The notes: generated by a model not told the origin, from the letters alone. 64,000 nt of DNA from Patescibacteria group bacterium (GCA_041645215.1 JBAZQK010000002.1:15435-79434); one strand, 5' to 3'; counted from the stretch's first letter, positions 2,980-62,012 are shown. A program made the numbers and translations.

Positions 2980-2994
2980 ATCCGAGGACTATTA

Positions 2995-3273: not shown

Positions 3274-3295
3274 TTCGCGCGAATAGGCGAATAGT
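3268..3295. promoter_or_regulatory. Second copy of the 28-bp repeat with perfect palindrome ATTCGCGCGAAT, between the ArsR gene and the downstream IMPase gene
   Basis: Direct repeat of 2952-2979; overlaps the regulator's stop codon. Confidence 0.45.
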
Positions 3296-3338
3296 TTAAA
3301 CCGCCAAAAGAAAAACTATAAAACGACAATATAATTTT

Positions 3339-4154
3339 ATGATAAATTTTAGCAAGCGGACAAAATTTTTACTGGAACTCTCCAAAAAAGCCTGCCGGAT
3401 AATGCTGAAATATTATAATCCGTGCGGGGTTGGTTATGTCATAAAAAATAAGAGCAGCGATTGGGGATTGGACGCCGTAACCAAAGCTGACATGGAGGTA
3501 AATAAAATGGTTTTGCGGGAAATAGAAAAACATTATCCAACTTATGACTTGCTAGGGGAGGAGATTAGCTCTTTTAAAAAAGGCCAAAAGCTGTTCGTGG
3601 TTGACCCGATTGACGGCACGCATATGTTTATAATCGGCGCGCCGTTGTTTGTTTTCTCCGCCGCGGTGGTTATAAATGGTAAACCAGTGGCTGGTGTGCT
3701 GGCTAACCCCTTAGCCAAAAGAACCCTACTGGCAGAATTGGACGGGGGCGCTTATTTGGTAGAACGTAATATTAAATTATCAGTTAGCAACCAGAAAACA
3801 TTCAATGGCTCGCTAATTCGTACTGGCTGGAAGGATTGCACTGCCGCTAAACTCCTGCACCGGCAAAATGCCCGTACACCTGAAGTTTATGCTGTTTGTG
3901 AATCTGCCTCGCTAATAGCTACCGGCGGGTTTGACGGTGACATCTTTATGGGTAATGCCGCCCATGATATCGCGGCGGTTAAAATAGTGGTGGAAGAGGC
4001 TGGTGGTAGAGTGACCAATCTTTGGGGACAAGAGCAAAAATACGACCGCGGCATTAAGGGCGCTATTATTACTAATGGCCATTTGCATAAAAAGTTAGTG
4101 GCGCTGGTAAAACAATCCGGCCTGCTAAAAACTTTTCAACCAGCCGCTAAATAA
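3339..4154 (+). CDS. Inositol monophosphatase family protein (IMPase/SuhB-like)
   Basis: VVDPIDGT motif and C-terminal AHDIAAVKIVVEEAGG. Confidence 0.7.
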   Translation: MINFSKRTKFLLELSKKACRIMLKYYNPCGVGYVIKNKSSDWGLDAVTKADMEVNKMVLREIEKHYPTYDLLGEEISSFKKGQKLFVVDPIDGTHMFIIGAPLFVFSAAVVINGKPVAGVLANPLAKRTLLAELDGGAYLVERNIKLSVSNQKTFNGSLIRTGWKDCTAAKLLHRQNARTPEVYAVCESASLIATGGFDGDIFMGNAAHDIAAVKIVVEEAGGRVTNLWGQEQKYDRGIKGAIITNGHLHKKLVALVKQSGLLKTFQPAAK

Positions 4155-8541: not shown

Positions 8542-9174
8542 ATGAATAGTTTAATTAAAGCCGTGTTGTTTGATTATAACGGGGTTATTGTTGATGATTT
8601 AGGCGCGTGTGGCCGAGCCGAGTGTGATGTAATACATAGTTTAGGTGGTCAAAAACTATCAATATCTTACTGGTTTAAAAATATTCACCAAGATTGGCAG
8701 AAATTTTATATGGCGCACGGTGTACCGCGTAAAAATCTCCGCCAAACCCATAAGTTAACGGCCAAATATTATCATAAATATGAAAAGTATATAAAATTAA
8801 CACCTGACGTAAAATTAATCTTACAAAGATTGACTGAGCGAAATATTAAGTTAGGAATCTTAAGTGCTGCTAGTAGAGATATTGTTAAAGAAGGTTTAAG
8901 ACGATTTGGTTTGGCAAATTATTTTTCTTTTATTATTGGTGGAGATGATGTTGCTAAACAAAAGCCACATCCACAAGGGTTGAGTAAGGCTGTAAGATTG
9001 TTTAAGGTAAAACCACAAGAGGTAATGTATGTGGATGACATGCCGTCGATTTTCGTAGCGGCTAAAAAAATGGGCGTCAAAACCGTAGGATTTTATTCCC
9101 GGGTCAGTGGCGATTTAAGTTTGGCTGAAGTGCGAATCAGAGATATTCGCAGTTTATTAAAATATATAAAATGA
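8542..9174 (+). CDS. HAD-superfamily hydrolase
   Basis: N-terminal LFDYNGVIVDD (DxD-type motif I). Confidence 0.6.
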   Translation: MNSLIKAVLFDYNGVIVDDLGACGRAECDVIHSLGGQKLSISYWFKNIHQDWQKFYMAHGVPRKNLRQTHKLTAKYYHKYEKYIKLTPDVKLILQRLTERNIKLGILSAASRDIVKEGLRRFGLANYFSFIIGGDDVAKQKPHPQGLSKAVRLFKVKPQEVMYVDDMPSIFVAAKKMGVKTVGFYSRVSGDLSLAEVRIRDIRSLLKYIK

Positions 9175-9833
9175 GCGCAATTTATTTTGACATTGGCGGA
9201 ACCTATGTTAGGACTGAAGTTATTAAAAATGGCCGAAGTTTATTTTATAAAAAAGTTCGTACAGCAAAAAATCGTATTAAATTTATTAGTCAACTAAAGA
9301 GCGTGATTAATAAGTTAGTTAAAAAATATAATTGTCAGCAAATTTGTTTTGGCGTGGCTGGTGTGGTTAGTGGTTCAAAGGTTATTTCTTGTGCTAATAT
9401 TAAATATTTAAGTAATTTTGATTTTAAAAAGATAGTTCCACCTCAAGTTAAAATTTTGGTGGATAATGACGCCCGAGCCTGGCTAAGTCAAATTGTGGTC
9501 AACAATCCGCAATTCCAAAATGGCACTATCTTAGGAATTACGGTCGGTACCGGTATCGGTCGGGCGGTGGCTCGGGATGGTAAAATTTTAAAAATAAAAA
9601 AGTTTGAACATCGGGAAAAATGGGAATCGGAATATCAACAGCGAAAATTTGAACCGAGTCCGAAATTAGCGCGTTGGTTTGCTGAAAAATTGCGGCCGAT
9701 TATCAATTTTTATAAACCTGATTTTATAGTCTTGGCTGGCGGTGTGATTGAGAAAAAACAGGGGTTTTATAGAGAGTTAGTAAATAGTCTAAGTAAAGGC
9801 AGTCCTAAGGTTAAAGTTGTTAAAGTGTTTTAG
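9171..9833 (+). CDS. ROK/BadF-type sugar kinase-like ATPase
   Basis: IYFDIGGTYVR N-terminal phosphate loop, VDNDARAW, GITVGTGIG. Confidence 0.45.
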   Translation: MSAIYFDIGGTYVRTEVIKNGRSLFYKKVRTAKNRIKFISQLKSVINKLVKKYNCQQICFGVAGVVSGSKVISCANIKYLSNFDFKKIVPPQVKILVDNDARAWLSQIVVNNPQFQNGTILGITVGTGIGRAVARDGKILKIKKFEHREKWESEYQQRKFEPSPKLARWFAEKLRPIINFYKPDFIVLAGGVIEKKQGFYRELVNSLSKGSPKVKVVKVF

Positions 9834-15455: not shown

Positions 15456-15484
15456 CCTCTCCCTTTTGTACAAAAGGGAGGGTA
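15456..15484 (+). terminator. Hairpin CTCCCTTTTGTACAAAAGGGAG after mrdA
   Basis: Perfect 8-bp stem; weak U-tract. Confidence 0.35.
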
Positions 15485-15630
15485 TCTTCCGATACCCGCC
15501 TAACCGCTCGTGCGCCTGCTCGGCCCACGGTCCCGCTAAGCGGGGCGGGCCGGCCAAGATCAGCCTAGGGCTGACAAGTGTTAAGGTGTTCAGGAGGATT
15601 AAGTATTCATGAAGCTTCAGACTTAAGCGC

Positions 15631-25559: not shown

Positions 25560-26434
25560 AGTTTTTTTCTCGTAAACGACGCCGCGAGCGACGACGTGAC
25601 TACTCAAGCCAGTACCATGGCCAGCCGGTAGTTATGAAGCAATTGACCCGGGCTTATCACCGGGGTGGTCGGCCAGCTCACAGTAAATGGTTGATCAAAT
25701 ATGGTCCGCCGATCGCAATGGCAATAATGATTGCAATTGCTTATTCTCCAATTTTTCGTATTCGTAATGTTATTATAAATAACATTCCTTTTCGACAAAC
25801 GGAGGAGCGTTTGCAGGCGACGATGCAGGATTATTTTACGAGTAGGCGTGGTTTTATTTTTCCGCAGTCTAACTTGCTTTTTTTTAGGGCCGAGTCGGCG
25901 CGTCAGGCGCTAAGCCGTGAGATTTACAGCGATAAGGTAGTATTTGAACGGCACTGGCCTAATGTTTTAAGGATCAATTATAATCCGGAGAATATCATTG
26001 CCCTGTGGCAGACCACCGGTAAACTTTTTGCCGTGGATCAGCGCGGCATTATGGTACAGGAACTGACTGGCGTAAAACTATACAATGTTGATTTGATTGT
26101 AGTTGATGAGGTTAACACGGTGGATCATAAGATCGGCGATCAGGTAGCCGGCCAGCAACTGGTTGATCTATTGGTCAATTTGCCCGGCGCCTGGGGCGGC
26201 AGCGTTGGTAAATTCAAGATTGAACGGGTGGCGGTGGATACTCAATTTTTACCAACTGTTGATATTTATACTGCTGACGGCTGGTATGTAATGGTCTCGG
26301 CCGAGGAGAGTATTGATAAGCAGATGCTAGTTTTAAAAAGATTGATAGATGAAAAAATTAAAAATGACATTAACCGCGTTCAATATATTGATGTCCGTTT
26401 TATTCAAAAGGCCAGTTATTCATTTAAGAATTAA
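25547..26434 (+). CDS. ftsQ: Cell division protein FtsQ/DivIB-like
   Basis: Basic N-terminus, one TM, POTRA-like region; position after ddl. Confidence 0.5.
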   Translation: MVSLKFFSRKRRRERRRDYSSQYHGQPVVMKQLTRAYHRGGRPAHSKWLIKYGPPIAMAIMIAIAYSPIFRIRNVIINNIPFRQTEERLQATMQDYFTSRRGFIFPQSNLLFFRAESARQALSREIYSDKVVFERHWPNVLRINYNPENIIALWQTTGKLFAVDQRGIMVQELTGVKLYNVDLIVVDEVNTVDHKIGDQVAGQQLVDLLVNLPGAWGGSVGKFKIERVAVDTQFLPTVDIYTADGWYVMVSAEESIDKQMLVLKRLIDEKIKNDINRVQYIDVRFIQKASYSFKN

Positions 26435-26562
26435 GCGGCGTTAATAAAACTTGGAAGCCGTAACGGCTTACTCCACCGTAGTCCTTAAAAAAGGTGAAGG
26501 AAGGCCGGAAGCTGTGGGGTATTATGGCGTAGTCCCGCAAAGCGGGACGAAGACGGATAAAT

Positions 26563-26767
26563 CCCGTTACATTTCCACGGGGTATTAGACGGACGCGGAA
26601 ATTGACCCCGTTAGAGATGCGGAACAAAGTGTAATTTGTAGGATGTTAATGTGTGCGGAGCGTATCTTACTATATGTTTCAGTACTGAGTGAATCTCTAA
26701 CGGGGTGAATCTGAATTTGCTGCGGTATCCCCGCGGCCAGACCGCGGGGTTTTTAAAATGTAACGGG
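26563..26767. mobile_element. Nested palindromic element (copy E2): outer TIR CCCGTTAC/GTAACGGG with flanking ATAAA(T/A); inner element 26606-26705 with TIR CCCCGTTAGAGAT/ATCTCTAACGGGG
   Basis: Seen directly; same architecture as 52174-52343. Confidence 0.55.
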
Positions 26768-26984
26768 ATAAAACTATCGTACATTTTGCGACACAAAGGA
26801 TGTTACCGGCAAAGTAGTTTGAGTGTGTAATAAATATTATTGACATAAAAATAATCATAATTGGCCGCAGAATTAAAAAATGAAGCCGGTGAGTTGGTAT
26901 AGTAATTGCATGTACCTGTGATTACTTATTACCGATTTTCCCAATTCAATTTACCAAACAGGATTTTATTATTCTCCAGTTATT

Positions 26985-27186
26985 CCCGCCTGCCTAAGCC
27001 TGTCTTAAGACAAGCGAAGTTAATAAAAAAGAAGATTTAAAACTAAATAATAAATAATCAATTATGCGAGGCATATGGCGGGCAGGCCCGCCTGCCTAAG
27101 CCTGTACAAAGTAAACGATGCTATTAAATAGAAAACTACAACACTAAATAATAATTATCGATTGCAAGAGGCCGATGGCGGGCAGG
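26985..27186 (+). repeat. Two tandem ~100-bp direct repeats, each beginning CCCGCCTGCCTAAGCCTGT and ending ATGGCGGGCAGG (complementary termini)
   Basis: Unit 1 26985-27086, unit 2 27087-27186; termini conserved, AT-rich interior diverged; terminus motif also at 50310-50323 (reverse). Confidence 0.65.
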
Positions 27187-27399
27187 TAAAAAATGGAAAA
27201 ATTATGCAGTTTTATGACGAAGTCATAGCTATCTTCATACCCCTGAAATCAACCTCGGGCCATATACGAGGTTGGTTTTTTGATAATATAAGGCCGCGGG
27301 GCTAATTTAAGTGTAACCCCGACAAATAAAGTGTCTGCTAATTATTACACAAAAAACTGTCCGGTTTTATAAAAAGCCACGACTTTATTGGTTTATAAT

Positions 27400-27565
27400 T
27401 AGGACTTACGGGTTTGAGCCAAGTTCGAGGCAAAACCGAGCATTTGAGCGAGCCGTAGTAAAACTACGGTGAGCGAAAAGCGGAGGTTTTAACAAAGAAA
27501 TTGGCCAAAGCCGCTTGAGGGGTCGGGCTGCGCCCGCCCTGCAAGCGGCAAGCCCGTAAGTCCTA
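27400..27565 (+). mobile_element. Structured MITE copy A (TAGGACTTACG TIR family), 166 bp, 5-bp TSD ATAAT (27395-27399 and 27566-27570)
   Basis: 13-bp perfect TIR TAGGACTTACGGG/CCCGTAAGTCCTA; internal hairpin CCGTAG/CTACGG covaries with CCCGCC/GGCGGG in copies B and C. Confidence 0.8.
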
Positions 27566-27717
27566 ATAATAACAAAAACATCAATTATAATGGGAGTAGC
27601 CGCTATTTAGGGATAATAAGAGTTTAAGCGGTATTTGCCTGATTTTAAAGACTATGTTAAACTGAGTATAATATCCCAAACGCTCAGTTATTTATACTAT
27701 AGACAAATATAGGTCAT

Positions 27718-28203
27718 ATGCCAAACTCCCCTGCAATAAATAGCATGACTGATGAGGCTAAAGCCTGGTTAGCAGGTTTTATTGATGGTGAAGGTTATAT
27801 CGGTTTAACCTTTCAAATAAAAAAAGCAACACCAACCTCGGCCCGCACGCCTCGTTATCACCCTTATTTGATAATAGCTAATACCAATAAAGCGGTTATT
27901 GAATATATTCAGACCATTTTGGGTGTGGGCAGAGTTTATAATTTTTTTCCAAAAAATATAAAATTCAAAGGTGCTTATCAAATTAAGATTAGTCAGAACA
28001 ATGATTTGCAGGCCGTTTTAACAGCCATACTCCCCTATTTGCGGGTTAAGTCTGAACAAGCTCGTATAGTTTTGGATTTTTTAGCCAGACGAAAAGACAT
28101 TAAACCTATTACTAGCCGCGGTCACAGAGGCGCGACTTCATTTGGTGAAGCCGATAAGGCTTTATATCAACGTTTATTGGATTTAAATAAGAAAGGACCA
28201 TAA
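27718..28203 (+). CDS. LAGLIDADG homing endonuclease (single-motif, homodimer type)
   Basis: AWLAGFIDGEGYIGL motif; ~160 aa. Confidence 0.7.
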   Translation: MPNSPAINSMTDEAKAWLAGFIDGEGYIGLTFQIKKATPTSARTPRYHPYLIIANTNKAVIEYIQTILGVGRVYNFFPKNIKFKGAYQIKISQNNDLQAVLTAILPYLRVKSEQARIVLDFLARRKDIKPITSRGHRGATSFGEADKALYQRLLDLNKKGP

Positions 28204-28205
28204 AT

Positions 28206-29141
28206 ATGCTGCCGCACTTTGATGATTTTCTGCTTTCATTGCAGGTGAATAATTATTCTAAAGAGACGGTCTATAATTACGAGCGCGACCTTAAGGTGTT
28301 TGAATTTTTTTTGGTTAATGACATAAAATTGAAAAATTTTGCCAAAATTAATAAAAAAACCATAGAACTTTATAAGGCTTATTTGGCCTCCAGAGACCGT
28401 GAGACGGCGACTGGCAAAAAAAGTCATGGCCAACTAACAAGTTTTTCAACTAATAGATTTTTATCTTCTTTGCGTCGCTATCTTAAATACTTGATTGAAA
28501 TGGACCTGCCTACTCCCCTGCCGCCCGAGGCGGTTAAGCTGGTAAAGACTGAGCGAAAGCACCCGCAGGTGGCGGAATTCACTGAACTGGTGCGCTTAAT
28601 TGAATCACCAACTTGGTTAGAAAAAAATAAGGTAGTTGGTTTGCGCAATCGGGTGATGTTGGAGGTTTTATTTGCCACTGGTATGCGGATTTCCGAATTA
28701 ACCGGACTTAATCGGGTACAAATCGACGACAGCGGCCGTATATTTATAACGGGTAAGGGTAAAAAACAGCGCTTTGTTTATTTGACCGAGCGGGCCAAAA
28801 AATATTTGAATATGTATTTAGCTAAACGTCCAGATACACACCCGGCCCTATTTATTCCCTACCGGGGAGGGAATGCCGGTAAGAATAACAGACGTTTATC
28901 AACTAATTATTTACAAATGAAAATCAAACAATACCGCGAGACTTTGCGCATAAATGTGCCAACCTCGGCCCACTCCCTGCGTCATGGCTTTGCCACTTAT
29001 TTGGCGGAAAGCGGCGCTAATCCGGCAGCTATTCAAGTTTTACTCGGTCACGAATCGCTTGATACCACTACCCGTTATGTCCACGCCTCCGATAAATATG
29101 CCGAAAGTACGCATAAAAAATTTCATCCGTTAAAAACTTGA
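28206..29141 (+). CDS. Tyrosine site-specific recombinase (XerC/XerD-like)
   Basis: N-terminal SAM-like core-binding domain; catalytic box HSLRHGFATYLAESG...LGHESLDTTTRYVH. Confidence 0.8.
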   Translation: MLPHFDDFLLSLQVNNYSKETVYNYERDLKVFEFFLVNDIKLKNFAKINKKTIELYKAYLASRDRETATGKKSHGQLTSFSTNRFLSSLRRYLKYLIEMDLPTPLPPEAVKLVKTERKHPQVAEFTELVRLIESPTWLEKNKVVGLRNRVMLEVLFATGMRISELTGLNRVQIDDSGRIFITGKGKKQRFVYLTERAKKYLNMYLAKRPDTHPALFIPYRGGNAGKNNRRLSTNYLQMKIKQYRETLRINVPTSAHSLRHGFATYLAESGANPAAIQVLLGHESLDTTTRYVHASDKYAESTHKKFHPLKT

Positions 29142-42431: not shown

Positions 42432-43487
42432 GTGAAAAAGCAGTTACAAAAATATAGTTTATTATGGTTGCCAATTTTATTAGTTGGCTTATTATGGTTG
42501 CCAAGTAAGTCTAACAGTGCCGTGATTCCAATTAGTAACAAAGTTACAATTTTAGCCGTGGGCGATATTATGCTGTCACGCAATGTGGCCGCTAAAATTG
42601 CTAAAGCTAAAAATCCCTTGCTCCCTTTTCAACAGGTTAAAGATTTATTACTGGCGACTGATTTTAATATAGGTAATTTGGAGTCGCCCTTTTCCGGTAA
42701 AGATACTTATCCTAAAACCGGCAGTTTGGTGTTCAACGCGCCGCGGTGGTCAGTTCAGGGTTTGGTTAAATATAATTTTAAAGTTTTAAGTTTGGCCAAC
42801 AATCACGTCCTTGATCAAGGGCTTAAGGGACTTATTTATACTAAGAATTATTTAGCGCAAAATAATATTCAAGCCATTGGCGCAGGCCAAAATTTAAGCG
42901 AAGCTTGGCAGCCCGCTATTATTGAAGCCAAGGGAGTTAAAATAGGTTTTATAGCCGCTTCTTACGCTTCGCTTAATGATAATGGTAAAAAGAAGAATGA
43001 ATACGTGGCTCGTCTTGAGGATTTGGATAATTTAAAAAAATCCATTGCGCAGGCCAAAGATAAGGCTGACTTAGTAATAGTCAGTCTACATGCCGGTACA
43101 GAATATAAACATCAGCCTAACAATGCGCAAATTAAATTTGCTCACGCCGCCATAGACAACGGCGCGGATTTGGTAATTGGCCATCACCCGCATTGGGCGC
43201 AGACTATAGAAAAGTATAAAGGCAAATATATTTTTTACTCCTTAGGCAACTTTATTTTTGACCAAATGTGGAGTACCAAGACACGGCAAGGTTTGGCTGT
43301 TAAATTTACAGTAAACGTTAATAATCAAACTAGCGGCGCTAAGGCCGCTTTTGCTCAAGCCGAGTTAATTCCCGTTATAATTGACAACTACTCCACTCCC
43401 CGCTTGACTAATTCCAAAGAGTCCACGATTATATTGAAATCAATTGGTGTGGTTGATAATGTAATTGATTTAAATTCAGAAAATTAA
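42432..43487 (+). CDS. CapA-family metallophosphatase (poly-gamma-glutamate synthesis/capsule-like)
   Basis: ILAVGDIMLSR and LANNHVLDQG motifs. Confidence 0.65.
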   Translation: MKKQLQKYSLLWLPILLVGLLWLPSKSNSAVIPISNKVTILAVGDIMLSRNVAAKIAKAKNPLLPFQQVKDLLLATDFNIGNLESPFSGKDTYPKTGSLVFNAPRWSVQGLVKYNFKVLSLANNHVLDQGLKGLIYTKNYLAQNNIQAIGAGQNLSEAWQPAIIEAKGVKIGFIAASYASLNDNGKKKNEYVARLEDLDNLKKSIAQAKDKADLVIVSLHAGTEYKHQPNNAQIKFAHAAIDNGADLVIGHHPHWAQTIEKYKGKYIFYSLGNFIFDQMWSTKTRQGLAVKFTVNVNNQTSGAKAAFAQAELIPVIIDNYSTPRLTNSKESTIILKSIGVVDNVIDLNSEN

Positions 43488-43560
43488 ATTGTTTCTTTAG
43501 GCTAGAGATTTGTTTATTTCACGCAATGTTTGCTGATATGAGAAGTAGTGAACGAAGCGA

Positions 43561-43634
43561 GGAAGGTTTTTTCCTGCGAGCGTTCATTCTTTTTTGAGGA
43601 AGGTTTTTTCCTGCGAGCGTTCATTCTTTTTTAA
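43561..43634. repeat. Tandem 37-bp repeat x2 (GGAAGGTTTTTTCCTGCGAGCGTTCATTCTTTTTT) forming imperfect hairpins
   Basis: Seen directly; second unit overlaps the 3-prime end of the minus-strand methyltransferase gene. Confidence 0.6.
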
Positions 43635-44349
43635 TGATGGCGATATAAATTGATTTATCAGAATCAATAAAATTTCTGACTCTCCAACCAGTATTTTTCA
43701 AAATATTTTTCATTTGGTTTTTAGAAACAAGTAAGTAATCAAACCAATCTCCAATATATTTCTTGAATCTAATTCTAATGCGAAGTTGCCCAGGCATTCT
43801 TCCTCTTTTTTCGTTGAACTTATGATAAGAGAGGTGTACCGGATCGTCTGTTTTATAAACATCATTGCTTTCAGCGAGTATCAAGGCGTTAGAGCTGGTT
43901 ATTTTGTGAAGTTTCTTGAGTAAGGATTTGGCTTTCTTAAAACTACCAAATAAACCAAAGTTGTTGCCGAACATGATAACAGTATCAAAAGTTTTTGGTT
44001 TGAATGTGCCGATTTTTTCAATAGGTAAAACTTTGGCGTTCTTTACACCACGCTTTTTACAGACTTTTATAGCAAGTGGTGAATTGTCTATGGCAATCAC
44101 ATCAAAATTTCTTTTCTGAAGATAAAGAGAATTGCGTCCAGCCCCAGCACCGATATCAAGGATTTTACCTTTGGCTAACTTGATTGCTTGTTTTTCAATT
44201 TTCGGCCAATCTTTAAAATTCGCAAAATAAGCCGATGCACCTCCCGACAGACCAATGAAACCGTCATCTCTTTCAACGACTTCATAAGAATCTTTTTTGA
44301 GGAAGAATGCCCATACCTCTTGTCCGTAAGCATCTTTGTTTGTATCCAT
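43621..44349 (-). CDS. Class I SAM-dependent methyltransferase
   Basis: Motif I ILDIGAGAGRNSLYL. Confidence 0.7.
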   Translation of the reverse strand: MDTNKDAYGQEVWAFFLKKDSYEVVERDDGFIGLSGGASAYFANFKDWPKIEKQAIKLAKGKILDIGAGAGRNSLYLQKRNFDVIAIDNSPLAIKVCKKRGVKNAKVLPIEKIGTFKPKTFDTVIMFGNNFGLFGSFKKAKSLLKKLHKITSSNALILAESNDVYKTDDPVHLSYHKFNEKRGRMPGQLRIRIRFKKYIGDWFDYLLVSKNQMKNILKNTGWRVRNFIDSDKSIYIAIIKKE

Positions 44350-44372
44350 ATTGGTTTGATTATGACTGGGAT

Positions 44373-44768
44373 TTATTCCTTAAAAAGTTTTATCCAGCCT
44401 AATTTTAACCACAAAACTATTTCATCGTAGGATTGGACACTCTTATCAGGCATTTGCAAAAGTATCACTTCAATATTTTTATTATAAATCAAATTTTGAG
44501 CAATGCCAAAGCCTATTTCAGCAAAGGTTTCAGCGCCGATGTATCCGGTGATGGCGTTTTTATCTTCATTCATAACAAAAAGAATATCCGTTTCGGTTAT
44601 GTTTTTAAAAAATTCCGTATGCACCTTTGGATATTCTTCTAAGAAAGTTTTCTTGGGAACTGGCAATGGGTAGCCGGTAACTAAATAGCCATTATCTTCC
44701 CAAAACTTTTTCCAATGTTGAACTTTTTCTTGCGGTCCGGCGCTGCCGACAATAACAACTTTTTTCAT
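44373..44768 (-). CDS. LOG/SLOG/nucleoside 2-deoxyribosyltransferase-fold protein (short)
   Basis: VVIVGSAG N-terminal and ITGYIGAETFAEIGFGIAQ resembling the LOG PGGxGTxEE / NDT glycine-rich motifs. Confidence 0.4.
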   Translation of the reverse strand: MKKVVIVGSAGPQEKVQHWKKFWEDNGYLVTGYPLPVPKKTFLEEYPKVHTEFFKNITETDILFVMNEDKNAITGYIGAETFAEIGFGIAQNLIYNKNIEVILLQMPDKSVQSYDEIVLWLKLGWIKLFKE

Positions 44769-44826
44769 AATGAGTAATGATTGTAAAATAGTGTGATTTG
44801 AGCTGAAGACGAAAAGGCAAAAAACA

Positions 44827-45273
44827 TTACTTTAAAAAGCTATCATACAGTTCAAAAGCTTTTAAGCATTCGTTTTTTACATTAACGGGAATGTGTTCTT
44901 TGTTTAAATCATTTTTAGTAAACCACCCAAAATTCTTTAACTCATTATTTATTTTTAGTCGTTCTGGATTTATGGCCTTGCAAACATAATACAGCGAACA
45001 ATGGTCATGGTCGCCAACTGAATGGACATTTACATAAAAAGGCGTAGCCAGATTATATTTGACATTTCCTTCTTCGGGTAAATCACTGACGTTGAGAATT
45101 TCTACGTCAATTCCGATTTCTTCTTTAATCTCACGAAGCAAGGCCTGGTCAGGAGTTTCGTTTTCGTCAATATGACCTCCCACAGCCAGCCATAAATCCA
45201 AACTTTTATGGTGAATTAGTAAAACCTTGTTTTCATGAATAATATATCCTGTAACGACTAAATCCGTTTTCAT
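44827..45273 (-). CDS. NUDIX hydrolase
   Basis: Nudix box GGHIDENETPDQALLREIKEEIGI. Confidence 0.7.
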   Translation of the reverse strand: MKTDLVVTGYIIHENKVLLIHHKSLDLWLAVGGHIDENETPDQALLREIKEEIGIDVEILNVSDLPEEGNVKYNLATPFYVNVHSVGDHDHCSLYYVCKAINPERLKINNELKNFGWFTKNDLNKEHIPVNVKNECLKAFELYDSFLK

Positions 45274-45398
45274 ATTGTGGCTTGAGTCTAATATGTTAAA
45301 TTTTGATAAATTGACGTTGAGATAATTATCAGTATCAGAAATAAGATAATGTTTGTAATTGCCGGATTAAGGAATTTTTTCCAGTTCATAGGTTTAAT

Positions 45399-45659
45399 TT
45401 ATTGATAAATATCATGGTCGCCGACTGAATGAAAAAATACTGCGTCTTTGTCCTTGGAAAACTCAAAAATTATTCTATATTTATAGCCAATAGAAAAAGA
45501 TAAAAACCCACTTAACTTACCTTTAAGCTTGTGGGTTTTTAGTTTAGAATCAAAAGGATTTTGTCTAAATATCTTTTCCTGCTGTTCAGCGATATCTTTG
45601 ATATTGTCCGGCAGCCTTTTGTATTCCCGGGCGAATTTTGAACTATAGATTACCTCCAT
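45399..45659 (-). CDS. RelE/ParE-family toxin
   Basis: 86 aa; KTHKLKGKLSGF...YRIIFEF...VGDHDIY pattern typical of RelE/ParE. Confidence 0.6.
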   Translation of the reverse strand: MEVIYSSKFAREYKRLPDNIKDIAEQQEKIFRQNPFDSKLKTHKLKGKLSGFLSFSIGYKYRIIFEFSKDKDAVFFHSVGDHDIYQ

Positions 45660-45671
45660 AAAAGGCAGTGA

Positions 45672-45887
45672 TTATCTCAAAGCTTTTAAAGATTTTAAAA
45701 CCTTACCATTGCCGGAGTTAATTTCTTGACGGCTTTGGTTAAGCTCGCTTAAGAGCTTACCCTCTTGCCACTCTCTTAAAATATGGCGAAAAAATTCGCT
45801 GGTAGAGGAATAATTTCCGGTTTTGACCATGTCTTTTACGGTTTTAGCCATTGGGGATGGCAGTGAAATGTTAATTACTTTACGCAT
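45672..45887 (-). CDS. Antitoxin (RHH/ParD/RelB-like) partner of the RelE/ParE toxin
   Basis: 71-aa ORF directly upstream of the toxin; STSEFFRHILREW motif. Confidence 0.55.
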   Translation of the reverse strand: MRKVINISLPSPMAKTVKDMVKTGNYSSTSEFFRHILREWQEGKLLSELNQSRQEINSGNGKVLKSLKALR

Positions 45888-45995
45888 ATGTTTAAATATT
45901 AATTGTAATAGTTTGTATTACAATATTATCAAATCTTAAAAACATTGTCAAATGCTATAAAATAAGCGGCATTTTCTTTAACTGTATACGCTGTG

Positions 45996-46478
45996 TTAGG
46001 CGATGTTAATTTTACTTTTTATGATTTTTTCCTCTATTAATGATGTTCTGATTTTATTTACACCAGAGGATAAAAAAATTGTTTTAATTCCTGGAAATTT
46101 GCTTTCGACATTCTTTGCAATATCTTTTCTTCGTTTTATTTTGTCTTTTTCATTTGAAAAAACCAAAAAATTCGGTTTTATTTTCTTTAAATTTTCATCG
46201 TCATATAAGGCCCTATTTGTCACAAATACATAATCAACAGCTTTTAATCCTAATAATAATTCAGCACGTTGTTTTTCTGGAATTATAGGACGATGATTTC
46301 CTTTGGTTTTTTTAATAAATCTATCACCGTTAATTCCAATAACTAAAATATCGCCGAATTTTTTGGCTTTTTCAATAAAACGAAGGTGTCCTATGTGTAA
46401 AATGTCGAAACACCCACCCAATAAAACAATTTTTTTTAGTCTGTTCAGATCGTTACCTAGTATATCTAAAGAAGTCAT
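45996..46478 (-). CDS. Cytidylyl/adenylyltransferase (HxGH nucleotidyltransferase; RfaE domain II / TagD-like)
   Basis: LLGGCFDILHIGH motif; ~160 aa. Confidence 0.65.
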   Translation of the reverse strand: MTSLDILGNDLNRLKKIVLLGGCFDILHIGHLRFIEKAKKFGDILVIGINGDRFIKKTKGNHRPIIPEKQRAELLLGLKAVDYVFVTNRALYDDENLKKIKPNFLVFSNEKDKIKRRKDIAKNVESKFPGIKTIFLSSGVNKIRTSLIEEKIIKSKINIA

Positions 46479-46504
46479 AAAAAGTAAAATTAATTTCGTT
46501 TAAC

Positions 46505-46680
46505 GTTCCAGAATATGCGATATTTGCCATTGCTATAATATCGCGAAGCGGTAGCAGTGGCAAATATGGGTGTAGCGAGGTGCAACCGAGCGAAACCGCA
46601 TATTCTGTGTTAAGTGAGGCGTAGGCCGAGCCCGAGGGCAACGTCCCGAAGGGCTGGCGAGAGTTACAATTTTTTTCTTA
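46505..46680 (+). ncRNA. Candidate small structured RNA ending in an intrinsic terminator (nested inverted repeats, then hairpin plus T7)
   Basis: Stems CAGAATATGCG/CGCATATTCTG and ATATTTGCCATTGC/GCAGTGGCAAATAT; GC hairpin at 46624-46660 followed by TTTTTTT on plus strand only. Confidence 0.3.
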
Positions 46681-47131
46681 TAAAAGATTGAACGATATTT
46701 AACTCGAGATACTTTTTTTGTAAATCAGGGGGGAGATGTCGGAAATCCCCAATAGTATGTCGGCAGTTTTGGCCCTTACATTCACATTGAAGGGTCCAAT
46801 TATCTTCATCCATTGTTGTTGAATAATCATAAAAAATTTCTTGACCTGGTGAAATATCTTCAATTGCCACAAGAAACCGATCATCCTTAATACCGGCATT
46901 TGGCGAGCATGAATGGTTGACTAAAACACCAGGCTCTTGAATATCAATATACTCTGTTGACCCAATTTGAAGCGGACAACTTAATTTATCTAATGGTTTT
47001 TGCAGTGCCTGTTCAGGAGAGATAACTGGACCTGTAAATTCAAGCATGCACTCGCCTTTGAGTATTGGCTTTGTTGCAAATACACCTCTGCCAAAATTGC
47101 CGCTATCCATAATTTCAATTTTTCCCGACAT
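46664..47131 (-). CDS. SET-domain protein lysine methyltransferase
   Basis: NHSCSPN, EIFYDY and post-SET CECKGQNCRH motifs. Confidence 0.75.
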   Translation of the reverse strand: MSGKIEIMDSGNFGRGVFATKPILKGECMLEFTGPVISPEQALQKPLDKLSCPLQIGSTEYIDIQEPGVLVNHSCSPNAGIKDDRFLVAIEDISPGQEIFYDYSTTMDEDNWTLQCECKGQNCRHTIGDFRHLPPDLQKKYLELNIVQSFIRKKL

Positions 47132-47186
47132 CGTTTTAATGGTTAAAATTACTGGCGAATTTTGCCTAACTGGTTGCTATGCGAAC

Positions 47187-47468
47187 CCCGTTAGAAATTT
47201 TGAAGAAAAGATTTTAGTCTATTTTTCAAATATCGCCTTCCCATCCCCGATTTTAAATACTTTTCTCAACTTTTGGCATCAGTCTCATTTATACATGCTT
47301 CATAGTAGACAAGCTTCCATGGTCTTTTCCCTTTGGTGGAACGATTGATTCCTTTATTATGTTCAGAAAATCTTTTCTTCAAATTATTGGTATAGCCAAT
47401 ATACAAGAGTAATCTTTTAAACTTTAAAGAAGATAAACGCAACAAAATGGCATATAATTTCTAACGGG
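47187..47468. mobile_element. CCCGTTAG-TIR element (copy E3) carrying a degenerate GIY-YIG ORF; TIR CCCGTTAGAAATT/AATTTCTAACGGG; 6-bp direct repeat GCGAAC (47181-47186 and 47469-47474)
   Basis: Seen directly. Confidence 0.65.
47266..47452 (-). pseudogene. Truncated GIY-YIG nuclease-domain ORF inside element E3 (no ATG, lacks C-terminal helix)
   Basis: Translation ...LLLYIGYTNNLKKRFSEHNKGINRSTKGKRPWKLVYYEA... contains the GIY-YIG core; opens right after a TAG inside the TIR. Confidence 0.5.
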
Positions 47469-47545
47469 GCGAACTTAAGTTAATTATTTTGCAAAAATTG
47501 TCCTGCCTAAATTCTATAATAAACGCCGAATTAAGCAAACACCAA

Positions 47546-49054
47546 TCAATCAACGGCTTGTTTCTTTTCCGTCACCCAAAAACCCAGATATTTGCCCAGC
47601 ATCAGGCGGGTTTGGGCGTCAGTCGCCGGTATAGCGCCAAATACGATCATAGTAATAGGAAAAAGGAACCACTGCATTACCATGGGAATGTATTTGTACC
47701 AGGGTTGTTTAGTGTCGCGCGACGGCAGCATAGCGGTTGACAAAATCGCGCTTAACACCAAACCTATCATGGCCAGCGTCATTATCCACTGCAACGCCAT
47801 GGGAGCATTATGGGCGAGCAAGTTGGATTTAACCGCGTCATCGGCGGTCCAGAGCGGCAAACGACCAAGAATAAAAATAATTAACGGCGCCGTGGCCCAA
47901 GAATAAACCCCTTCCAATTGATTCCATAAATAGCGAATTTTCCGATTAAAAGGAATGGTGCGCGAGCGCCAAAAATGCCAGGCCATGTAGGGAAAATTTT
48001 CTACGCCGTAGGCCCAGCGACGTTGCTGTTTGTACTGATTGACAACGCTGCGCCACAAAGATCCGGCATAAACCGTATCCATTGAAATTGGTATGTACAT
48101 GGGGGTTACGCGATAGTTTCCGTTGTAACGTATAAAGCATTGCAAAAAAATCCGCGAATCCTCGGTCACAATGTCATTTTGCCAAAAACCGACATCTACC
48201 AGGGCGGTGAACGGCATGGAGTGCGAGGAAAATGTAAATAATCTTTCGGGCCGCGCCAAGTCCGTCAACAGCCAAAACGTGGTTGAGTTGGCCACAATTC
48301 GGTTAATGGCCGGCGATTCCCAAATATTATTATTATAAACGGCTAACGGCTGATAGCTGGTATGCAACGGGTCGGGCACGGTCAGATATTTATAGGTTAA
48401 ATAAGCGAAATATTGAGGATGGGCGCAGGAATCAACGTCAAAAGTTGATACCACCACATTTTTGTACGGTATTTTTAAATTATCAATTAATTTTTGGGCT
48501 TGATGCCCGGCCCAATTAGTATTGGCCCCCTTGCCGGCCATTTCGCCGATAATGTTGCCCGGATGGAGCGTAATTAAAAAATAACCAAAGCGATCGCCGT
48601 ATTGTTGTTTGATGCTGGTTGAGATTAATTCAAAATTTGCTTGATCACGCTCCTCGCCGGCTAACACCACAATTAATTTATCAAGCGGATACTTGATTTG
48701 AGTTAAAGATTCTATTGATTTAACCACGACTTCATAAGGCTCGCGAAAAGTGGGCAGAAAAATTAAGTGGTAAATGTCATTATAATGCGGAAGTACTTTC
48801 ACTTTTTCAAACCAATCAGCGCGCAGAGTTACGCGATATTGTTTCCAGGAAGATAACAGGTAAATAATCAGATAAGCCACTCGGAGCAGCCAATATAAAT
48901 CAAATATTATGATTACGTATATCGCCCACAATGGTTTAACAAATGATAAAACAACGGCTCCGATAAGAGTCGTCCATACTAAAACTCCGGGTATAATCTC
49001 TAAAAAGCGGTAAACCTTTTTTTTGTCCAAATTATCAATATAATCACGCAGCAT
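47546..49054 (-). CDS. Membrane-embedded family 2 glycosyltransferase of the processive type (cellulose/hyaluronan-synthase-like)
   Basis: DxD region (STFDVDS) and QQRRW (QxxRW) motif flanked by TM helices. Confidence 0.65.
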   Translation of the reverse strand: MLRDYIDNLDKKKVYRFLEIIPGVLVWTTLIGAVVLSFVKPLWAIYVIIIFDLYWLLRVAYLIIYLLSSWKQYRVTLRADWFEKVKVLPHYNDIYHLIFLPTFREPYEVVVKSIESLTQIKYPLDKLIVVLAGEERDQANFELISTSIKQQYGDRFGYFLITLHPGNIIGEMAGKGANTNWAGHQAQKLIDNLKIPYKNVVVSTFDVDSCAHPQYFAYLTYKYLTVPDPLHTSYQPLAVYNNNIWESPAINRIVANSTTFWLLTDLARPERLFTFSSHSMPFTALVDVGFWQNDIVTEDSRIFLQCFIRYNGNYRVTPMYIPISMDTVYAGSLWRSVVNQYKQQRRWAYGVENFPYMAWHFWRSRTIPFNRKIRYLWNQLEGVYSWATAPLIIFILGRLPLWTADDAVKSNLLAHNAPMALQWIMTLAMIGLVLSAILSTAMLPSRDTKQPWYKYIPMVMQWFLFPITMIVFGAIPATDAQTRLMLGKYLGFWVTEKKQAVD

Positions 49055-59245: not shown

Positions 59246-59881
59246 CTAATTTTTCCCAAAATATTTTAGATACGCTCCCCAAAACAACCTTAAGTATTCT
59301 TGAAATTTTATTCTAATATCACCAAGATATTCGGTATACGTTCCATCTTTATTTCTATGCTTTATAAGACTTAAAGAAGCAAATGCTCCTGAATCTTGAT
59401 CTATTAAATTAAACCAATGTGCGTCGTGAATAAATCCGTTTCTCATATCATATAATATTTCCCAAAATTCTAATCGAATAGAAACTCCGTTTAAAGGTTG
59501 TACCATTATCGCCTCATTTAAAGTGCTTATATCATTAGATGAAAAATATTTTATAAAATCTTTTATTCTTTCTACTGACTTTGTTTTATCGTTGTTCAGA
59601 TGTTCTATTATAGAAAGAGTTATTTGATACATGAAACCATCAATATTTACAATCGCTTTGTCTCCAGTAATTCTGTAAAGATCATGAACGTAATAAAAAT
59701 AAATCGTATAAAGGAAATCTTCAAATTTATCTTTTGAAATATTCTCTAAAAAAGTGAAGTATTGATCTTCATTAGTAAAATATGCTGCTAAATATCTCCA
59801 ACCTTCTTCTAATATTCTTGGAATTCTACCTATAAATATAGCTCTATCGGTTTTTTCCAATAAAATTTGGGGAACTATCAT
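59246..59881 (-). CDS. Abi_2 (AbiD/AbiF)-like HEPN-motif protein, candidate abortive-infection factor
   Basis: C-terminal MRNGFIHDAHW matching the HEPN Rx4-6H / Abi_2 RNxxAH signature; AT-rich gene. Confidence 0.35.
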   Translation of the reverse strand: MIVPQILLEKTDRAIFIGRIPRILEEGWRYLAAYFTNEDQYFTFLENISKDKFEDFLYTIYFYYVHDLYRITGDKAIVNIDGFMYQITLSIIEHLNNDKTKSVERIKDFIKYFSSNDISTLNEAIMVQPLNGVSIRLEFWEILYDMRNGFIHDAHWFNLIDQDSGAFASLSLIKHRNKDGTYTEYLGDIRIKFQEYLRLFWGAYLKYFGKN

Positions 59882-59955
59882 ATATTAAATCATTAATGCT
59901 GTCACCGCGTCTCCCGCACAAGGCTCGAAAATTTGCTCATGAATTGAGTGATTTT

Positions 59956-60576
59956 TTATGGTTGAACACCTCGGTCAACTAGGATTGCCAAAGATACAAA
60001 CCTTCCAATTAAATCTTCATAGTCCTTAAAAAGGACTGGATAAAAACCAATTTCTTGTGAAAGACGGAGACTTTGTTCACTATCATCGATAAATATCAGT
60101 TCGCTTGGACTAACCCCAAGCTTTTTTATAAACAAATTAAATATTTCGGAACTCGGTTTTTGATAACCAACCTCCGCCGATATAACCACAACATCAAAAT
60201 GCTGGCCAAGTACGTCTTGGCGAATTTTTGACCAATTTTCTGGACTATTGTTACTTAAGAGGCCGGTCTTGTAGCCTAGCGTTCGCAAACGATCAACCAG
60301 TTCCACCATCTTGGGATCAATGTTAGTTTTTTGTTCAGAAGCAATATACTTTAAGACTTCTGCCGACTTTTTTTCTTTTTTCAGTTTTTCAAGTATAATT
60401 CCCCAAAACTTATCATAAGGAACTCCATCAACATTTACTAGACTGTTGTGGTGGAAATACACTTTTTTCAATTCGTCTAAAGGTACTCCAAGAATCTCAG
60501 CGATGCCCGCCATAAATCCAGGTGGTTGGTCGTCTATAACACCTCCGTAATCAAAACCGATCGCACGAATGTTCAT
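59956..60576 (-). CDS. HAD-superfamily hydrolase
   Basis: IGFDYGGVIDD motif I; IFIDDSEQ motif IV. Confidence 0.6.
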   Translation of the reverse strand: MNIRAIGFDYGGVIDDQPPGFMAGIAEILGVPLDELKKVYFHHNSLVNVDGVPYDKFWGIILEKLKKEKKSAEVLKYIASEQKTNIDPKMVELVDRLRTLGYKTGLLSNNSPENWSKIRQDVLGQHFDVVVISAEVGYQKPSSEIFNLFIKKLGVSPSELIFIDDSEQSLRLSQEIGFYPVLFKDYEDLIGRFVSLAILVDRGVQP

Positions 60577-60750
60577 AAAAAAGTATTAACGTATTCAGGT
60601 TTCTTAAGATAACAAGAATTGATGCCTATCCACTCGGGTTAGGTACCCCCATGCTACAGTGTGTTGAGAGGTTTTTCAAGCGTCGTCCAGGGGTTTAATT
60701 TTAGGTACGATGGTCAGGTGATTTTTTGAACGAATCAAAAAGTTTTGAGA

Positions 60751-61284
60751 TCAATTCTGCGAGAGCTGCGAAAGATTGAGGCCAAAGAAAATAAAAATTA
60801 TATAAATAATAATCAAAAGTAGTAGCCCACCAACTATAATAGCAAAGGTTTGATTATTAGTGAGCCTCTCTAAGTGGTTCATTGGAGGCCTTTTAACAGT
60901 ACTCGTTTCTTTTGCAATATTCATCCTCTTATATCTATTATAGATTTCATCAAATTTTGGTTGTACGACTTTCAAATTTAAATATTGAGTAGCTATGCCA
61001 CCATTTTTATAAAGAACAAAAATCTCATCAATACTATAATTAGGATCGTCTATTTGGGGTAACTTAGCTAGTACGCCGACACCTGTTTTTATTTCTATTG
61101 CTTTCATCCCTTCAATTTTATCCAAAACAGCCTTTTCTCCCTTATCAAAAACAAAAGCTTTATGATCTGAATTGTATTTTGATTCTTTCCAATTAATCTC
61201 TTGTGTATTATTAAATAAAAGCCCCTCCTTTATTTTTTGAAGGATTTCCCAAATTTTATTATCGAATTTTTCTTCAGGAGTCAT
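60751..61284 (-). CDS. Hypothetical protein with C-terminal TM anchor
   Basis: ORF; single C-terminal hydrophobic helix. Confidence 0.35.
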   Translation of the reverse strand: MTPEEKFDNKIWEILQKIKEGLLFNNTQEINWKESKYNSDHKAFVFDKGEKAVLDKIEGMKAIEIKTGVGVLAKLPQIDDPNYSIDEIFVLYKNGGIATQYLNLKVVQPKFDEIYNRYKRMNIAKETSTVKRPPMNHLERLTNNQTFAIIVGGLLLLIIIYIIFIFFGLNLSQLSQN

Positions 61285-61673: not shown

Positions 61674-62012
61674 TTATATCTGGCTTCTGTTAAAAACTGG
61701 GGGACATGGATTCGAACCATGATTACCGCGTCCAGAGCGCGGCGTCCTACCATTAGACGATCCCCCAGTTTTTAACAGAAACTTTTTAAAGGCGTTACCA
61801 CTATGCCAACTTTTAATTTGTTTTTCTCTTTGACGGGCATCTGTATAGCTTAAGTATTTTTCCGTATAAATCAAGTGCCATGGTCTAAATAATTTTGTCG
61901 ACGTAACTAAACCTTTATTATGTCTAGTTAAACGTAACTTGGGTTCTAACTTAGTTATTCCTATATAGTACCTACCAAAATTATTTCGTAGTATATATAA
62001 ATGACAAATCAT
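61674..62012 (-). CDS. Stand-alone small GIY-YIG nuclease (YhbQ-like); ORF has no stop before reading through the downstream tRNA-Gln
   Basis: YILRNNFGRYYIGITKLEPKLRLTRHNKG...RPWHLIYTEKY...REKQIKSW; domain ends ~61772, C-terminal 30 codons overlap the tRNA. Confidence 0.55.
   Translation of the reverse strand: MICHLYILRNNFGRYYIGITKLEPKLRLTRHNKGLVTSTKLFRPWHLIYTEKYLSYTDARQREKQIKSWHSGNAFKKFLLKTGGSSNGRTPRSGRGNHGSNPCPPVFNRSQI
61698..61767 (-). tRNA. tRNA-Gln (anticodon CUG), no encoded CCA; 13-bp leader/trailer helix
   Basis: Manual fold of reverse complement; anticodon stem CCGCG/CGCGG loop CTCTGGA; flanks TTCTGTTAAAAAC / GTTTTTAACAGAA complementary. Confidence 0.85.

Follow-up and report, generated by a model that had tools for sequence, protein, structure and literature searches.

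The stretch of Patescibacteria DNA analyzed here (GCA_041645215.1, JBAZQK010000002.1:15435-79434; 64,000 nt, hereafter the window) carries an AT-rich islet of accessory genes at 43488..47545, which extends from the stop codon of a PGA_cap gene (42432-43487, plus strand) to the stop codon of a convergent gene for a 502-aa membrane protein (47546-49054, minus strand). The islet encodes a class I S-adenosylmethionine (SAM)-dependent methyltransferase, a short NDT-fold protein of 131 aa (o131), a Nudix hydrolase, a RelE/ParD toxin-antitoxin pair, an HxGH nucleotidyltransferase, and a SET-domain methyltransferase, with a small GIY-YIG nuclease gene at the far side. Open reading frame (ORF) and domain searches agreed with the gene list and the minus-strand orientation of all listed genes in a first-pass annotation, which had been generated by a model from the sequence alone. 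We read the islet as a horizontally acquired, strain-variable row of cassettes, probably a decayed integron-like array without its recombinase. Recombination at the sites described below, the former presence of an integrase at the islet, and every enzymatic activity named here are predicted from sequence.

The window resembles a genome of the Patescibacteria (Candidate Phyla Radiation, CPR). The o131 protein is identical to that of a metagenome-assembled genome (MAG) deposited at NCBI as ‘Patescibacteria group bacterium’, and the closest relatives by flanking genes are Kerfeldbacteria- and Doudnabacteria-type MAGs.

Composition and Insertion of the Islet

The sharp drop in GC content reported by the first-pass annotation is real. 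The region 43561-47500 has a GC content of 0.343, compared with 0.426 for the whole window, and is the lowest among 601 sliding 3.94-kb windows. The seven islet ORFs have a mean GC of 0.345, compared with 0.431 for the 67 ORFs outside the islet (Mann-Whitney p = 5e-6), with lower GC1, GC2, and GC3 as well.

Four relatives (L009, L011, L013, and L023; loci from other genomes are denoted by L and a number) retain the gene order Def-Fmt-PGA_cap, and all four lack the islet. In these relatives, the PGA_cap gene and the gene for the 502-aa membrane protein adjoin, with a gap of approximately 1-190 bp, and in L023 the synteny extends to the next two genes of the window; therefore, the approximately 4.06 kb at 43488-47545 is an insertion in this lineage, and the term “accessory islet” used in the first-pass annotation is appropriate. 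No direct repeats flanking the whole islet were found in a search for att or target duplications, which returned only short repeats at chance level. A prophage or integrative and conjugative element remnant is ruled out, as the islet lacks phage, conjugation, and integrase genes. A scan of the islet against Rfam gave no family at the gathering threshold, and the sole match, a miRNA-like one below the threshold, reflects an inner hairpin.

Smaller low-GC patches also occur at 8.5-9.8 kb and 59.2-61.3 kb of the window. The first (8542-9833) consists of two adjacent ORFs of 210 and 220 aa, with a GC of 0.35 and GC3 of 0.29 amid genes of 0.45-0.48 GC, and is possibly another foreign insert.

A Mosaic Islet in a Sibling Strain

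A sibling strain, represented by a 4882-bp JGI contig (L088), has the islet at the same site with differences at the level of single cassettes. Nucleotide identity between L088 and the window is approximately 98-99% for PGA_cap, 99-100% for the SET and GIY-YIG genes, and 93-96% for o131, Nudix, and the toxin-antitoxin pair. The nucleotidyltransferase ORF is far more divergent (68-79% nucleotide and 76% protein identity), while its flanks are 99-100% identical on the SET side and approximately 96% identical on the antitoxin side. Moreover, the whole methyltransferase segment (43491-44370) is replaced in L088 by an internally repeated ORF of 159 aa.

Other changes in L088 affect individual genes. 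The relE gene carries a GC-rich in-frame insertion of approximately 180 bp (2300-2481) that is rich in hairpin-forming sequence and may be a small repeat resembling a miniature inverted-repeat transposable element (MITE) that inactivates the toxin; short pieces of this insertion match 15480-15514 of the window. The C-terminus of the SET protein is frameshifted. A further GC-rich insertion of 84 bp (1752-1836), absent in the window, lies just after a truncated hairpin element (described below) downstream of the nucleotidyltransferase gene.

A Family of attC-Like Hairpin Elements

The spacer between the SET and nucleotidyltransferase genes is 185 bp long and GC-richer than its surroundings. It contains a full attC-like hairpin element of 146 nt (46485..46630, plus strand), which in the sense of the genes runs from an R''-like ACTTAAC (46615-46609) to an R'-like GTTAAAC (46504-46498). 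Folded as single-stranded DNA, the element forms a long imperfect hairpin, with a z-score of -5.1 for the plus strand and -3.7 for the minus strand. Its ends, GTTTAAC...GTTAAGT, fit the box consensus of integron attC sites, RYYYAAC/GTTRRRY, and adjoin an 11-bp paired ‘L’ stem. This combination of RYYYAAC...GTTRRRY with paired flanks occurs at a single site in the 64 kb, and 29 out of 30 shuffles of the sequence contained none.

Sequence searches identified four homologous copies of the element in other loci with an o131 homologue, in which 15 of the 37 predicted pairs showed compensatory changes. A first covariance model (R1) and then a second one built from 15 copies (R2) were constructed; the element of the islet scores 134.9 bits with R1 and 106.3 bits with R2. 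In the alignment of the 15 members, which was fitted to the model such that pairing is inflated, 89.9% of cells are paired, compared with 72% after shuffling and 31-47% in slid controls, 20 of the 37 pairs show double (compensatory) changes, and the covariation of 0.442, compared with 0.147, was reached by none of 500 shuffles. Searches of 0.48 Mb of o131 and nucleotidyltransferase loci yielded 26 matches to the element, all in one orientation relative to the genes (p = 3e-8), vs. one match in 1.24 Mb of control loci. The modeled strand, which is antisense to the ORFs, contains 62 G.T wobbles vs. 7 A.C. This excess indicates that the hairpin belongs to the ‘bottom’ strand, as in the attC sites of integrons, and not to an mRNA.

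Two remnants of the element may accompany the full copy. One is a truncated element (GCCTAACACAGCGTATACAG, 45963..46018, plus strand; R2 score 11.6 bits, E = 0.2), of which only the half located 3' of the nucleotidyltransferase stop codon in the sense of the gene remains, and which is homologous to the start of the full element following the nucleotidyltransferase gene of L161, a locus of the Azambacteria MAG GCA_030688155.1. The other is a weak, internally deleted copy 3' of the methyltransferase gene (43508..43556, plus strand), which scored 14.5 bits with R2 (E = 0.035) when 7 kb were searched without filters; it has the same orientation as the full element, and by eye its ends (ATTTCAC...GCGAGG) are like the element consensus. 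A 36-nt inverted repeat bracketing the nucleotidyltransferase ORF was considered as a pair of MITE-type terminal repeats and was reinterpreted as element ends: one arm corresponds to the end of the upstream element on its R' side, and the other to the R''-side start of the truncated element downstream. The nucleotidyltransferase ORF itself contains an inverted repeat of equal strength, and the raw statistic for the bracketing repeat is thus not special.

Several metagenomic contigs start or end within or beside an element (L007, 4-149; L099, 1-115; L106, 28-154; L092, 2496-2631; L166, 33-153), as is expected for a dispersed repeat. This suggests that those genomes contain several copies of the element, at which short-read assemblies break, and arrays of the element may accordingly be under-represented in MAGs.

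Element Arrays and an IntI-Like Recombinase in Other Patescibacteria

In four independent loci of related Patescibacteria, the element occurs once per ORF in unidirectional arrays beside a divergent tyrosine recombinase. The L161 array comprises six elements alternating with single ORFs (the nucleotidyltransferase, two unknowns, CYTH, and DUF488) and adjoins a 272-aa recombinase. In L093, the recombinase is followed by four ORFs, each with an element after it, including two cytidine/dCMP deaminase-like genes and, as the fourth, o131. The order in L094 is recombinase, GNAT, element, o131, Peptidase_S51, element, and Nudix, with a weaker third element match after Nudix, and in L092 it is recombinase, o131, and element. 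Homologues of the SET gene in two Uhrbacteria-type contigs (L166 and L167) are flanked by the same element. Four gene families of the islet, NDT-fold, Nudix, nucleotidyltransferase, and SET, recur among element-bounded ORFs elsewhere.

The four recombinases share 54-63% mutual identity. Their best match in the PDB is VchIntIA (158 bits), followed by XerA (148 and 137 bits) and XerD (87 bits), and in NCBIfam they score best, and above the cut-off, with ‘site-specific tyrosine recombinase/integron integrase’. They also pass the NCBIfam XerA model (221-228 bits vs. a cut-off of 220) and with TIGR02249 their 207-217 bits stay under the cut-off of 265. The window itself has an Xer-like tyrosine recombinase gene (28206-29141) that is 25-28% identical to the array recombinases. 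It follows a LAGLIDADG-type homing-endonuclease-like ORF (27718-28203, motif LAGFIDGEGY) and, before that, 1.3 kb without a convincing ORF or Rfam match (26434-27718, in the region 26434-29141).

Cassette boundaries in these loci are of the integron type. Five o131 cassettes from different arrays can be aligned exactly from an invariant GTT (GTTRTCTGAAATTTCA...), with identity beginning at G↓TT, and the boundary holds in L092 as well, in which the upstream DNA is the integrase-proximal region instead of a further element. Likewise, the nucleotidyltransferase gene of the window with flanks of approximately 25 bp (45971-46507) shares 86% nucleotide identity with the array cassette of the Azambacteria MAG (L161/L162). 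This homology begins at AAC↓GTTA, inside the upstream element, and ends at 45971, within the truncated one. The window gene is closer to the Azambacteria gene than to the allele of the sibling strain at the same site (86% vs. 68-79%).

A candidate attI-like motif, CGCATAGCAACCAG↓TT (47168-47183, minus strand), lies immediately upstream of the SET gene in the window. It matches the integrase-proximal junction of L092 (2029-2044) when the N position is left free, and close variants stand at the same place in L093 and L094; the chance expectation is 0.1 per window even with two mismatches allowed. The SET gene is presumed to be the first cassette of the islet.

The position expected for an integrase is taken by the small GIY-YIG nuclease gene (47191-47445, minus strand; PF01541), which the first-pass annotation had correctly placed at this side of the islet. 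The gene contains an in-frame TGA (47266-47268), a position at which the sibling strain has Arg in an ORF of 84 aa. It is bracketed by perfect 14-bp inverted repeats, CCCCGTTAGAAATT at 47186-47199 and AATTTCTAACGGGG at 47456-47469, with CGAAC on both outer sides, and the unit at 47186-47469 looks like a compact mobile unit. A second GIY-YIG ORF (61674-62012, minus strand), which shares 51% identity with the islet copy over 53 aa, is located at the border of the low-GC patch 59246-61284 (unannotated ORFs, gene GC 0.28-0.38), and its 3' end overlaps a tRNA-Gln gene (61696-61768).

Cassette Array or Ordinary Flexible Genome

Several observations weigh against reading the islet as a relic array. 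The window has one complete element, and the two remnants are weak when taken alone; a search of the islet with filters off revealed nothing beyond these two, and no recognizable element is present at the toxin-antitoxin, Nudix-o131, or o131-methyltransferase junctions (125, 58, and 23 bp). An integrase-less attC cluster is usually recognized from at least two attC sites within approximately 4 kb, to which one full site and two remnants do not amount. Neither an integrase nor an integrase pseudogene was found in or beside the islet, and in the window itself the traits of an array are limited to gene co-orientation and the attI-like motif. Compared with canonical attC sites, the elements have a greater length and asymmetry, and their R boxes agree only loosely with RYYYAAC/GTTRRRY, while the pairing statistics carry the inflation noted above. 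The array recombinases align to residues 7-200 and 242-317 of VchIntIA and thus lack the IntI-specific additional domain, which classical integron recombination requires. The swap between the methyltransferase and the 159-aa ORF breaks at stop codons, a pattern more in keeping with homologous recombination than with site-specific exchange. Finally, approximately 64 of the 72 loci collected with an o131 homologue have no element, and o131 is therefore usually an ordinary chromosomal gene.

Some of these observations would also be explained if the islet had accumulated piece by piece through ordinary horizontal transfer and homologous recombination, the site between the convergent genes being permissive, with the hairpin being a terminator or a dispersed repeat of the MITE or repetitive extragenic palindromic (REP) type and no cassette system at all. 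The single full element, the missing integrase, and the methyltransferase swap at conserved gene ends are consistent with such a history, as are the two GC-rich insertions in the sibling strain, which point to the activity of other small mobile repeats, and the separate GIY-YIG element with its own inverted repeats at the edge. It would not account for an element family that, in four independent loci, occurs once per ORF, in one direction, and in clusters next to a dedicated IntI-like recombinase, for homology breakpoints that fall on the GTT of the element, for the match between the motif upstream of the SET gene and integrase-proximal junctions, or for the four gene families of the islet that are element-bounded elsewhere. 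We therefore regard an islet without any cassette system as unlikely and favor the decayed integron-like array.

Under the array reading, a divergent IntI-like tyrosine recombinase in related Patescibacteria stands beside a unidirectional array in which each ORF is followed by a hairpin of approximately 105-225 nt that folds best antisense to the ORFs and has AAC and GTT at its ends, and cassettes would be exchanged by crossover at G↓TT. Read along the minus strand, the islet would begin with the attI-like junction, the SET gene as the first cassette, and the complete element, continue with the nucleotidyltransferase cassette and its truncated element, and then with RelE/ParD as a self-promoted addiction module that would stabilize the array. 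The Nudix and NDT-fold pair would follow, and the islet would end with the methyltransferase and a degenerate element remnant beside a 37-bp duplication.

More tentatively, and with somewhat less than even confidence, the Patescibacteria may carry a class of integron-like platform of their own, of which the islet would be an integrase-less relic. Such a platform would combine an IntI-related recombinase without the IntI-specific domain, long asymmetric bottom-strand hairpins, AAC/GTT crossover, and an attI-like junction. Its pool of cassettes would include NDT-fold, Nudix, cytidine/dCMP deaminase, CYTH, and cytidylyltransferase genes, in addition to SET, GNAT, and toxin-antitoxin genes. No report of integrons in CPR/Patescibacteria was found in the literature searched, the coverage of which was incomplete, so that novelty is uncertain.

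Methyltransferase End and Tandem Duplication

The methyltransferase (43621-44349, minus strand; 242 aa) matches Pfam Methyltransf_11, _25, and _31. Its best sequence matches in the PDB are 9khp/9klx (‘class I SAM-dependent methyltransferase’, E = 2e-39), and a literature look-up on these two entries returned nothing usable. The 37-bp tandem repeat that the first-pass annotation had placed at this bound of the islet exists as an exact duplication (43559-43632, plus strand; two copies, Tandem Repeats Finder score 148, 100% identity) and occurs nowhere else in the window. The repeat contains the last three codons of the methyltransferase gene (KKE), its stop codon, and the 5' half of a downstream hairpin, and it is also present in an independent assembly (L007). 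Its role as a boundary signal of the islet was rejected, as it is a local duplication of the methyltransferase gene end.

Toxin-Antitoxin, Nucleotidyltransferase, and SET Genes

The toxin gene (45399-45659, minus strand; 86 aa) is of the RelE/YafQ type (TIGR02385 RelE_StbE, 30.5 bits vs. a cut-off of 27.9), with Pfam YafQ/ParE matches under the cut-offs. The antitoxin (45672-45887, minus strand; 71 aa) is a ribbon-helix-helix (RHH) protein of the ParD/CopG type (Pfam RHH_1, 25.7 bits vs. 20.5), with a TIGR02606 ParD-family match under the cut-off. The antitoxin gene comes first, with the toxin gene 12 bp downstream, and these family-level matches place the pair among the type II RelE/ParD modules. 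A perfect palindrome with a 9-bp stem, ATTGTAATA-GTTTG-TATTACAAT (45902..45924), is located 15-37 nt upstream of the antitoxin start codon and is a probable operator, by analogy with the autoregulation of RHH antitoxins. A homologous pair with 68-70% amino acid identity is present in an unrelated locus (L080). This locus (860-984 and 2953-3438) is the only control locus with a strong match to the hairpin element (82 bits) and also the only one with close RelE/ParD homologues, and there too the pair comes right after a PGA_cap gene.

The nucleotidyltransferase (45996-46478, minus strand; 160 aa) is an HxGH cytidylyl/adenylyltransferase-like protein with a Rossmann-like PF01467 domain, and its gene is read as a mobile single-gene cassette. 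The best PDB match is ethanolamine-phosphate cytidylyltransferase, and the nearest types are the enzymes for ethanolamine-phosphate (ECT), glycerol-3-phosphate (TagD), and heptose-1-phosphate (RfaE domain II; 101 bits, below the cut-off of 181), as well as PPAT.

The SET-domain methyltransferase (46664-47131, minus strand; 155 aa) matches PF00856 (56.4 bits, E = 4e-15) and has a post-SET CxCx4C motif, seen as CECKGQNC in the translation, and PDB alignments are to the SET domains of KMT2/ASH1L. Homologues with 60-82% identity occur in Uhrbacteria, and other matches are labeled Woesearchaeota (66%), Cytophagaceae (70%), and cyanobacteria (49-54%), which hints that the SET cassette may have spread across phyla and possibly across domains.

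NDT-Fold Protein and Nudix Hydrolase

The o131 protein (44373-44768, minus strand) shows the characteristic alpha/beta fold of the NDT/DNPH1/MilB superfamily and belongs to a tight, uncharacterized family, the source-named members of which are all Patescibacteria (58-86% identity; 293 representatives at the 50% level). No match to Pfam PF05014 or PF15891 was obtained for any of 34 members of the family, sequence searches of the PDB and Pfam with o131 gave no match, and an hhalign comparison of the family with a PF05014 neighbor was weak and partial. An invariant Glu (E84) in FAE(I/M) (FAEIG in o131), where the helix following strand 3 begins, may occupy the position expected for the catalytic Glu of the NDT-family motif (I/Y)E(L/I)G, with E80 as an alternative; the profile comparison is too weak to fix the residue. 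The Nudix hydrolase (44827-45273, minus strand; 148 aa) matches PF00293 (57.5 bits vs. a cut-off of 21.1, E = 2e-15) and has an intact Nudix box in its translation (GHIDENETPDQALLREIKEEIGI, fitting GX5EX7REUXEEXGU); the substrates of its closest solved relatives are unknown.

Clustering of the neighbors in the 72 o131 loci revealed unrelated neighbors in most of the loci. In approximately 12 of the 72, a Nudix gene is the immediate neighbor of the o131 homologue; both gene orders occur, and the stop codon of one gene often overlaps the start codon of the other. The Nudix box occurred in 11 of 127 slots next to o131 vs. 5 of 442 other ORFs (Fisher odds ratio 8.3, p = 7e-5, for loci that are phylogenetically non-independent). 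Nudix and the NDT-fold gene are therefore the one plausible two-gene module of the islet. In this module, the Nudix enzyme would convert a (d)NTP or nucleotide derivative to a nucleoside monophosphate (NMP), from which o131, as an N-glycosidase similar to NDT, DNPH1, and MilB, would release the base, for housecleaning or base salvage.

Recurring neighbors of o131 also include a true PF05014 NDT paralogue, histidine phosphatase, HD, DHHA1, and cytidylate-kinase-like proteins, and CPR/Patescibacteria are presumed to depend on scavenged nucleotides. Together with the high conservation of the o131 family, these associations would suit a native nucleotide-salvage locus, in which ordinary genes of the lineage have a low GC content through gene-specific composition. 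Such an origin is very improbable in light of the four syntenic relatives without the islet, the low GC of seven unrelated genes at each of the three codon positions, the differences in gene content between strains that are 93-100% identical, and the presence of a toxin-antitoxin module and a decayed homing-type nuclease.

The first-pass annotation had instead proposed a defense or nucleotide-signal theme, in which the NDT/SLOG-like, Nudix, and nucleotidyltransferase genes, with or without the others, would form one defense system or a nucleoside hypermodification pathway. The genes are indeed co-oriented and tightly packed, the Nudix-o131 linkage is recurrent, and deaminases and CYTH occur among neighboring cassettes elsewhere. 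In PADLOC-DB v2, the methyltransferase domain matched mad2 and the N-terminal Nudix segment matched PDC-S07, both weakly, and the GIY-YIG protein matched PDC-S14 marginally (E = 0.008). These are generic domain matches and no system model was matched beyond them; the NDT-fold protein, toxin, antitoxin, nucleotidyltransferase, and SET protein had no match in this database. The HxGH nucleotidyltransferase belongs to the small-molecule PF01467 class and not to the signal-making Pol-beta/CD-NTase enzymes. Its homologues occur without o131 or Nudix in L161, L163, and L165, and beyond the sibling strain it never adjoins NDT-fold or Nudix genes, such that among the 72 o131 loci the trio is together only in the sibling strain. 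The components are also swapped independently between near-identical strains, and no member of the o131 family was detected among the viral contigs of IMG/VR. The first-pass annotation had itself named outcomes that would speak against its proposal, and these are borne out in part: the loci show a trio without conserved linkage, although native composition and presence of the islet in all relatives are not seen. With the idea of a single system largely refuted by the lack of conserved linkage, we give it hardly any credence. The nucleotide-enzyme flavor extends to the wider cassette pool (deaminases, Nudix, NDT-fold, and CYTH) and appears to reflect a collection of independent cassettes rather than a pathway; the islet genes are best read as functionally unrelated accessory enzymes from a pool shared among Patescibacteria.

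Comparison With Known Systems

Chromosomal (sedentary) integrons and attC-site clusters without an integrase (CALINs) are defined by IntegronFinder (PMC9024848), and integrons have been extended to Archaea, in which the IntIs keep the IntI-specific additional domain (PMC9668308). The arrays described here resemble integrons in their divergent tyrosine recombinase with VchIntIA as the closest solved homologue, in their unidirectional rows of small, mostly single-ORF cassettes, and in the imperfect palindrome after each ORF, which has AAC...GTT ends, folds antisense to the ORFs, and is conserved in structure over sequence. The start of cassette identity at G↓TT, the common junction motif beside the integrase, the toxin-antitoxin and GNAT cassettes, the integrase-less relics, and the assemblies broken at repeats are further points of likeness. 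They differ in that the array recombinases (approximately 271 aa) lack the additional domain (VchIntIA residues approximately 201-241), a defining feature, and in that the elements are approximately 105-225 nt long with a large one-sided bulge and loose R boxes, although the AAC/GTT triplets are conserved. The islet further differs from a complete integron in having no adjacent IntI.

Single-recombinase systems based on Xer recombinases and dif sites, including archaeal XerA, offer another comparison. Modules mobilized by Xer, such as the pdif modules of Acinetobacter plasmids, likewise contain small accessory genes together with toxin-antitoxin pairs. The array recombinases pass the XerA model, have the size of Xer proteins, and lack the IntI insertion. 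However, dif/pdif sites are duplexes of approximately 28 bp in alternating orientation, whereas the arrays have one co-oriented single-strand hairpin of 100-200 nt per ORF, and the Xer-like gene of the window is only distantly related to the array recombinases.

Type II RelE/ParD toxin-antitoxin modules are known as stabilizers of integron arrays (PMC10661359). The pair in the islet is similar in having the antitoxin upstream, a gap of 12 bp, an RHH antitoxin behind a palindrome, and a position within a row of cassettes, and differs in that no element flanks it, so that its status as a cassette is presumptive. With respect to the NDT/DNPH1 (Rcl)/MilB superfamily, o131 differs in having no detectable sequence match to PF05014, PF15891, or the PDB and in forming a separate, very tight clade, confined to Patescibacteria among source-named members.

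The islet by itself would be ordinary flexible genome, and its interest lies in the possible integron-like platform of the CPR and in the NDT-fold family. As a caution for annotation, co-oriented genes of a ‘nucleotide’ flavor can be independent cassettes and not a pathway or a defense system. With its high conservation, its absence from Pfam, and its recurrent pairing with Nudix, the o131 family is a candidate for a CPR-specific step of nucleotide sanitizing or salvage. If the platform exists, integron-type recombination would extend to a recombinase without a domain considered essential for attC recognition, and the recombinase family, hairpin model, and GTT junctions would together provide a searchable signature for a flexible gene pool. 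Members of the CPR/Patescibacteria have tiny genomes and are thought to scavenge from hosts, and their gain and loss of accessory genes is poorly understood; a platform for the capture of cassettes would be a concrete mechanism for gene flux in these bacteria.

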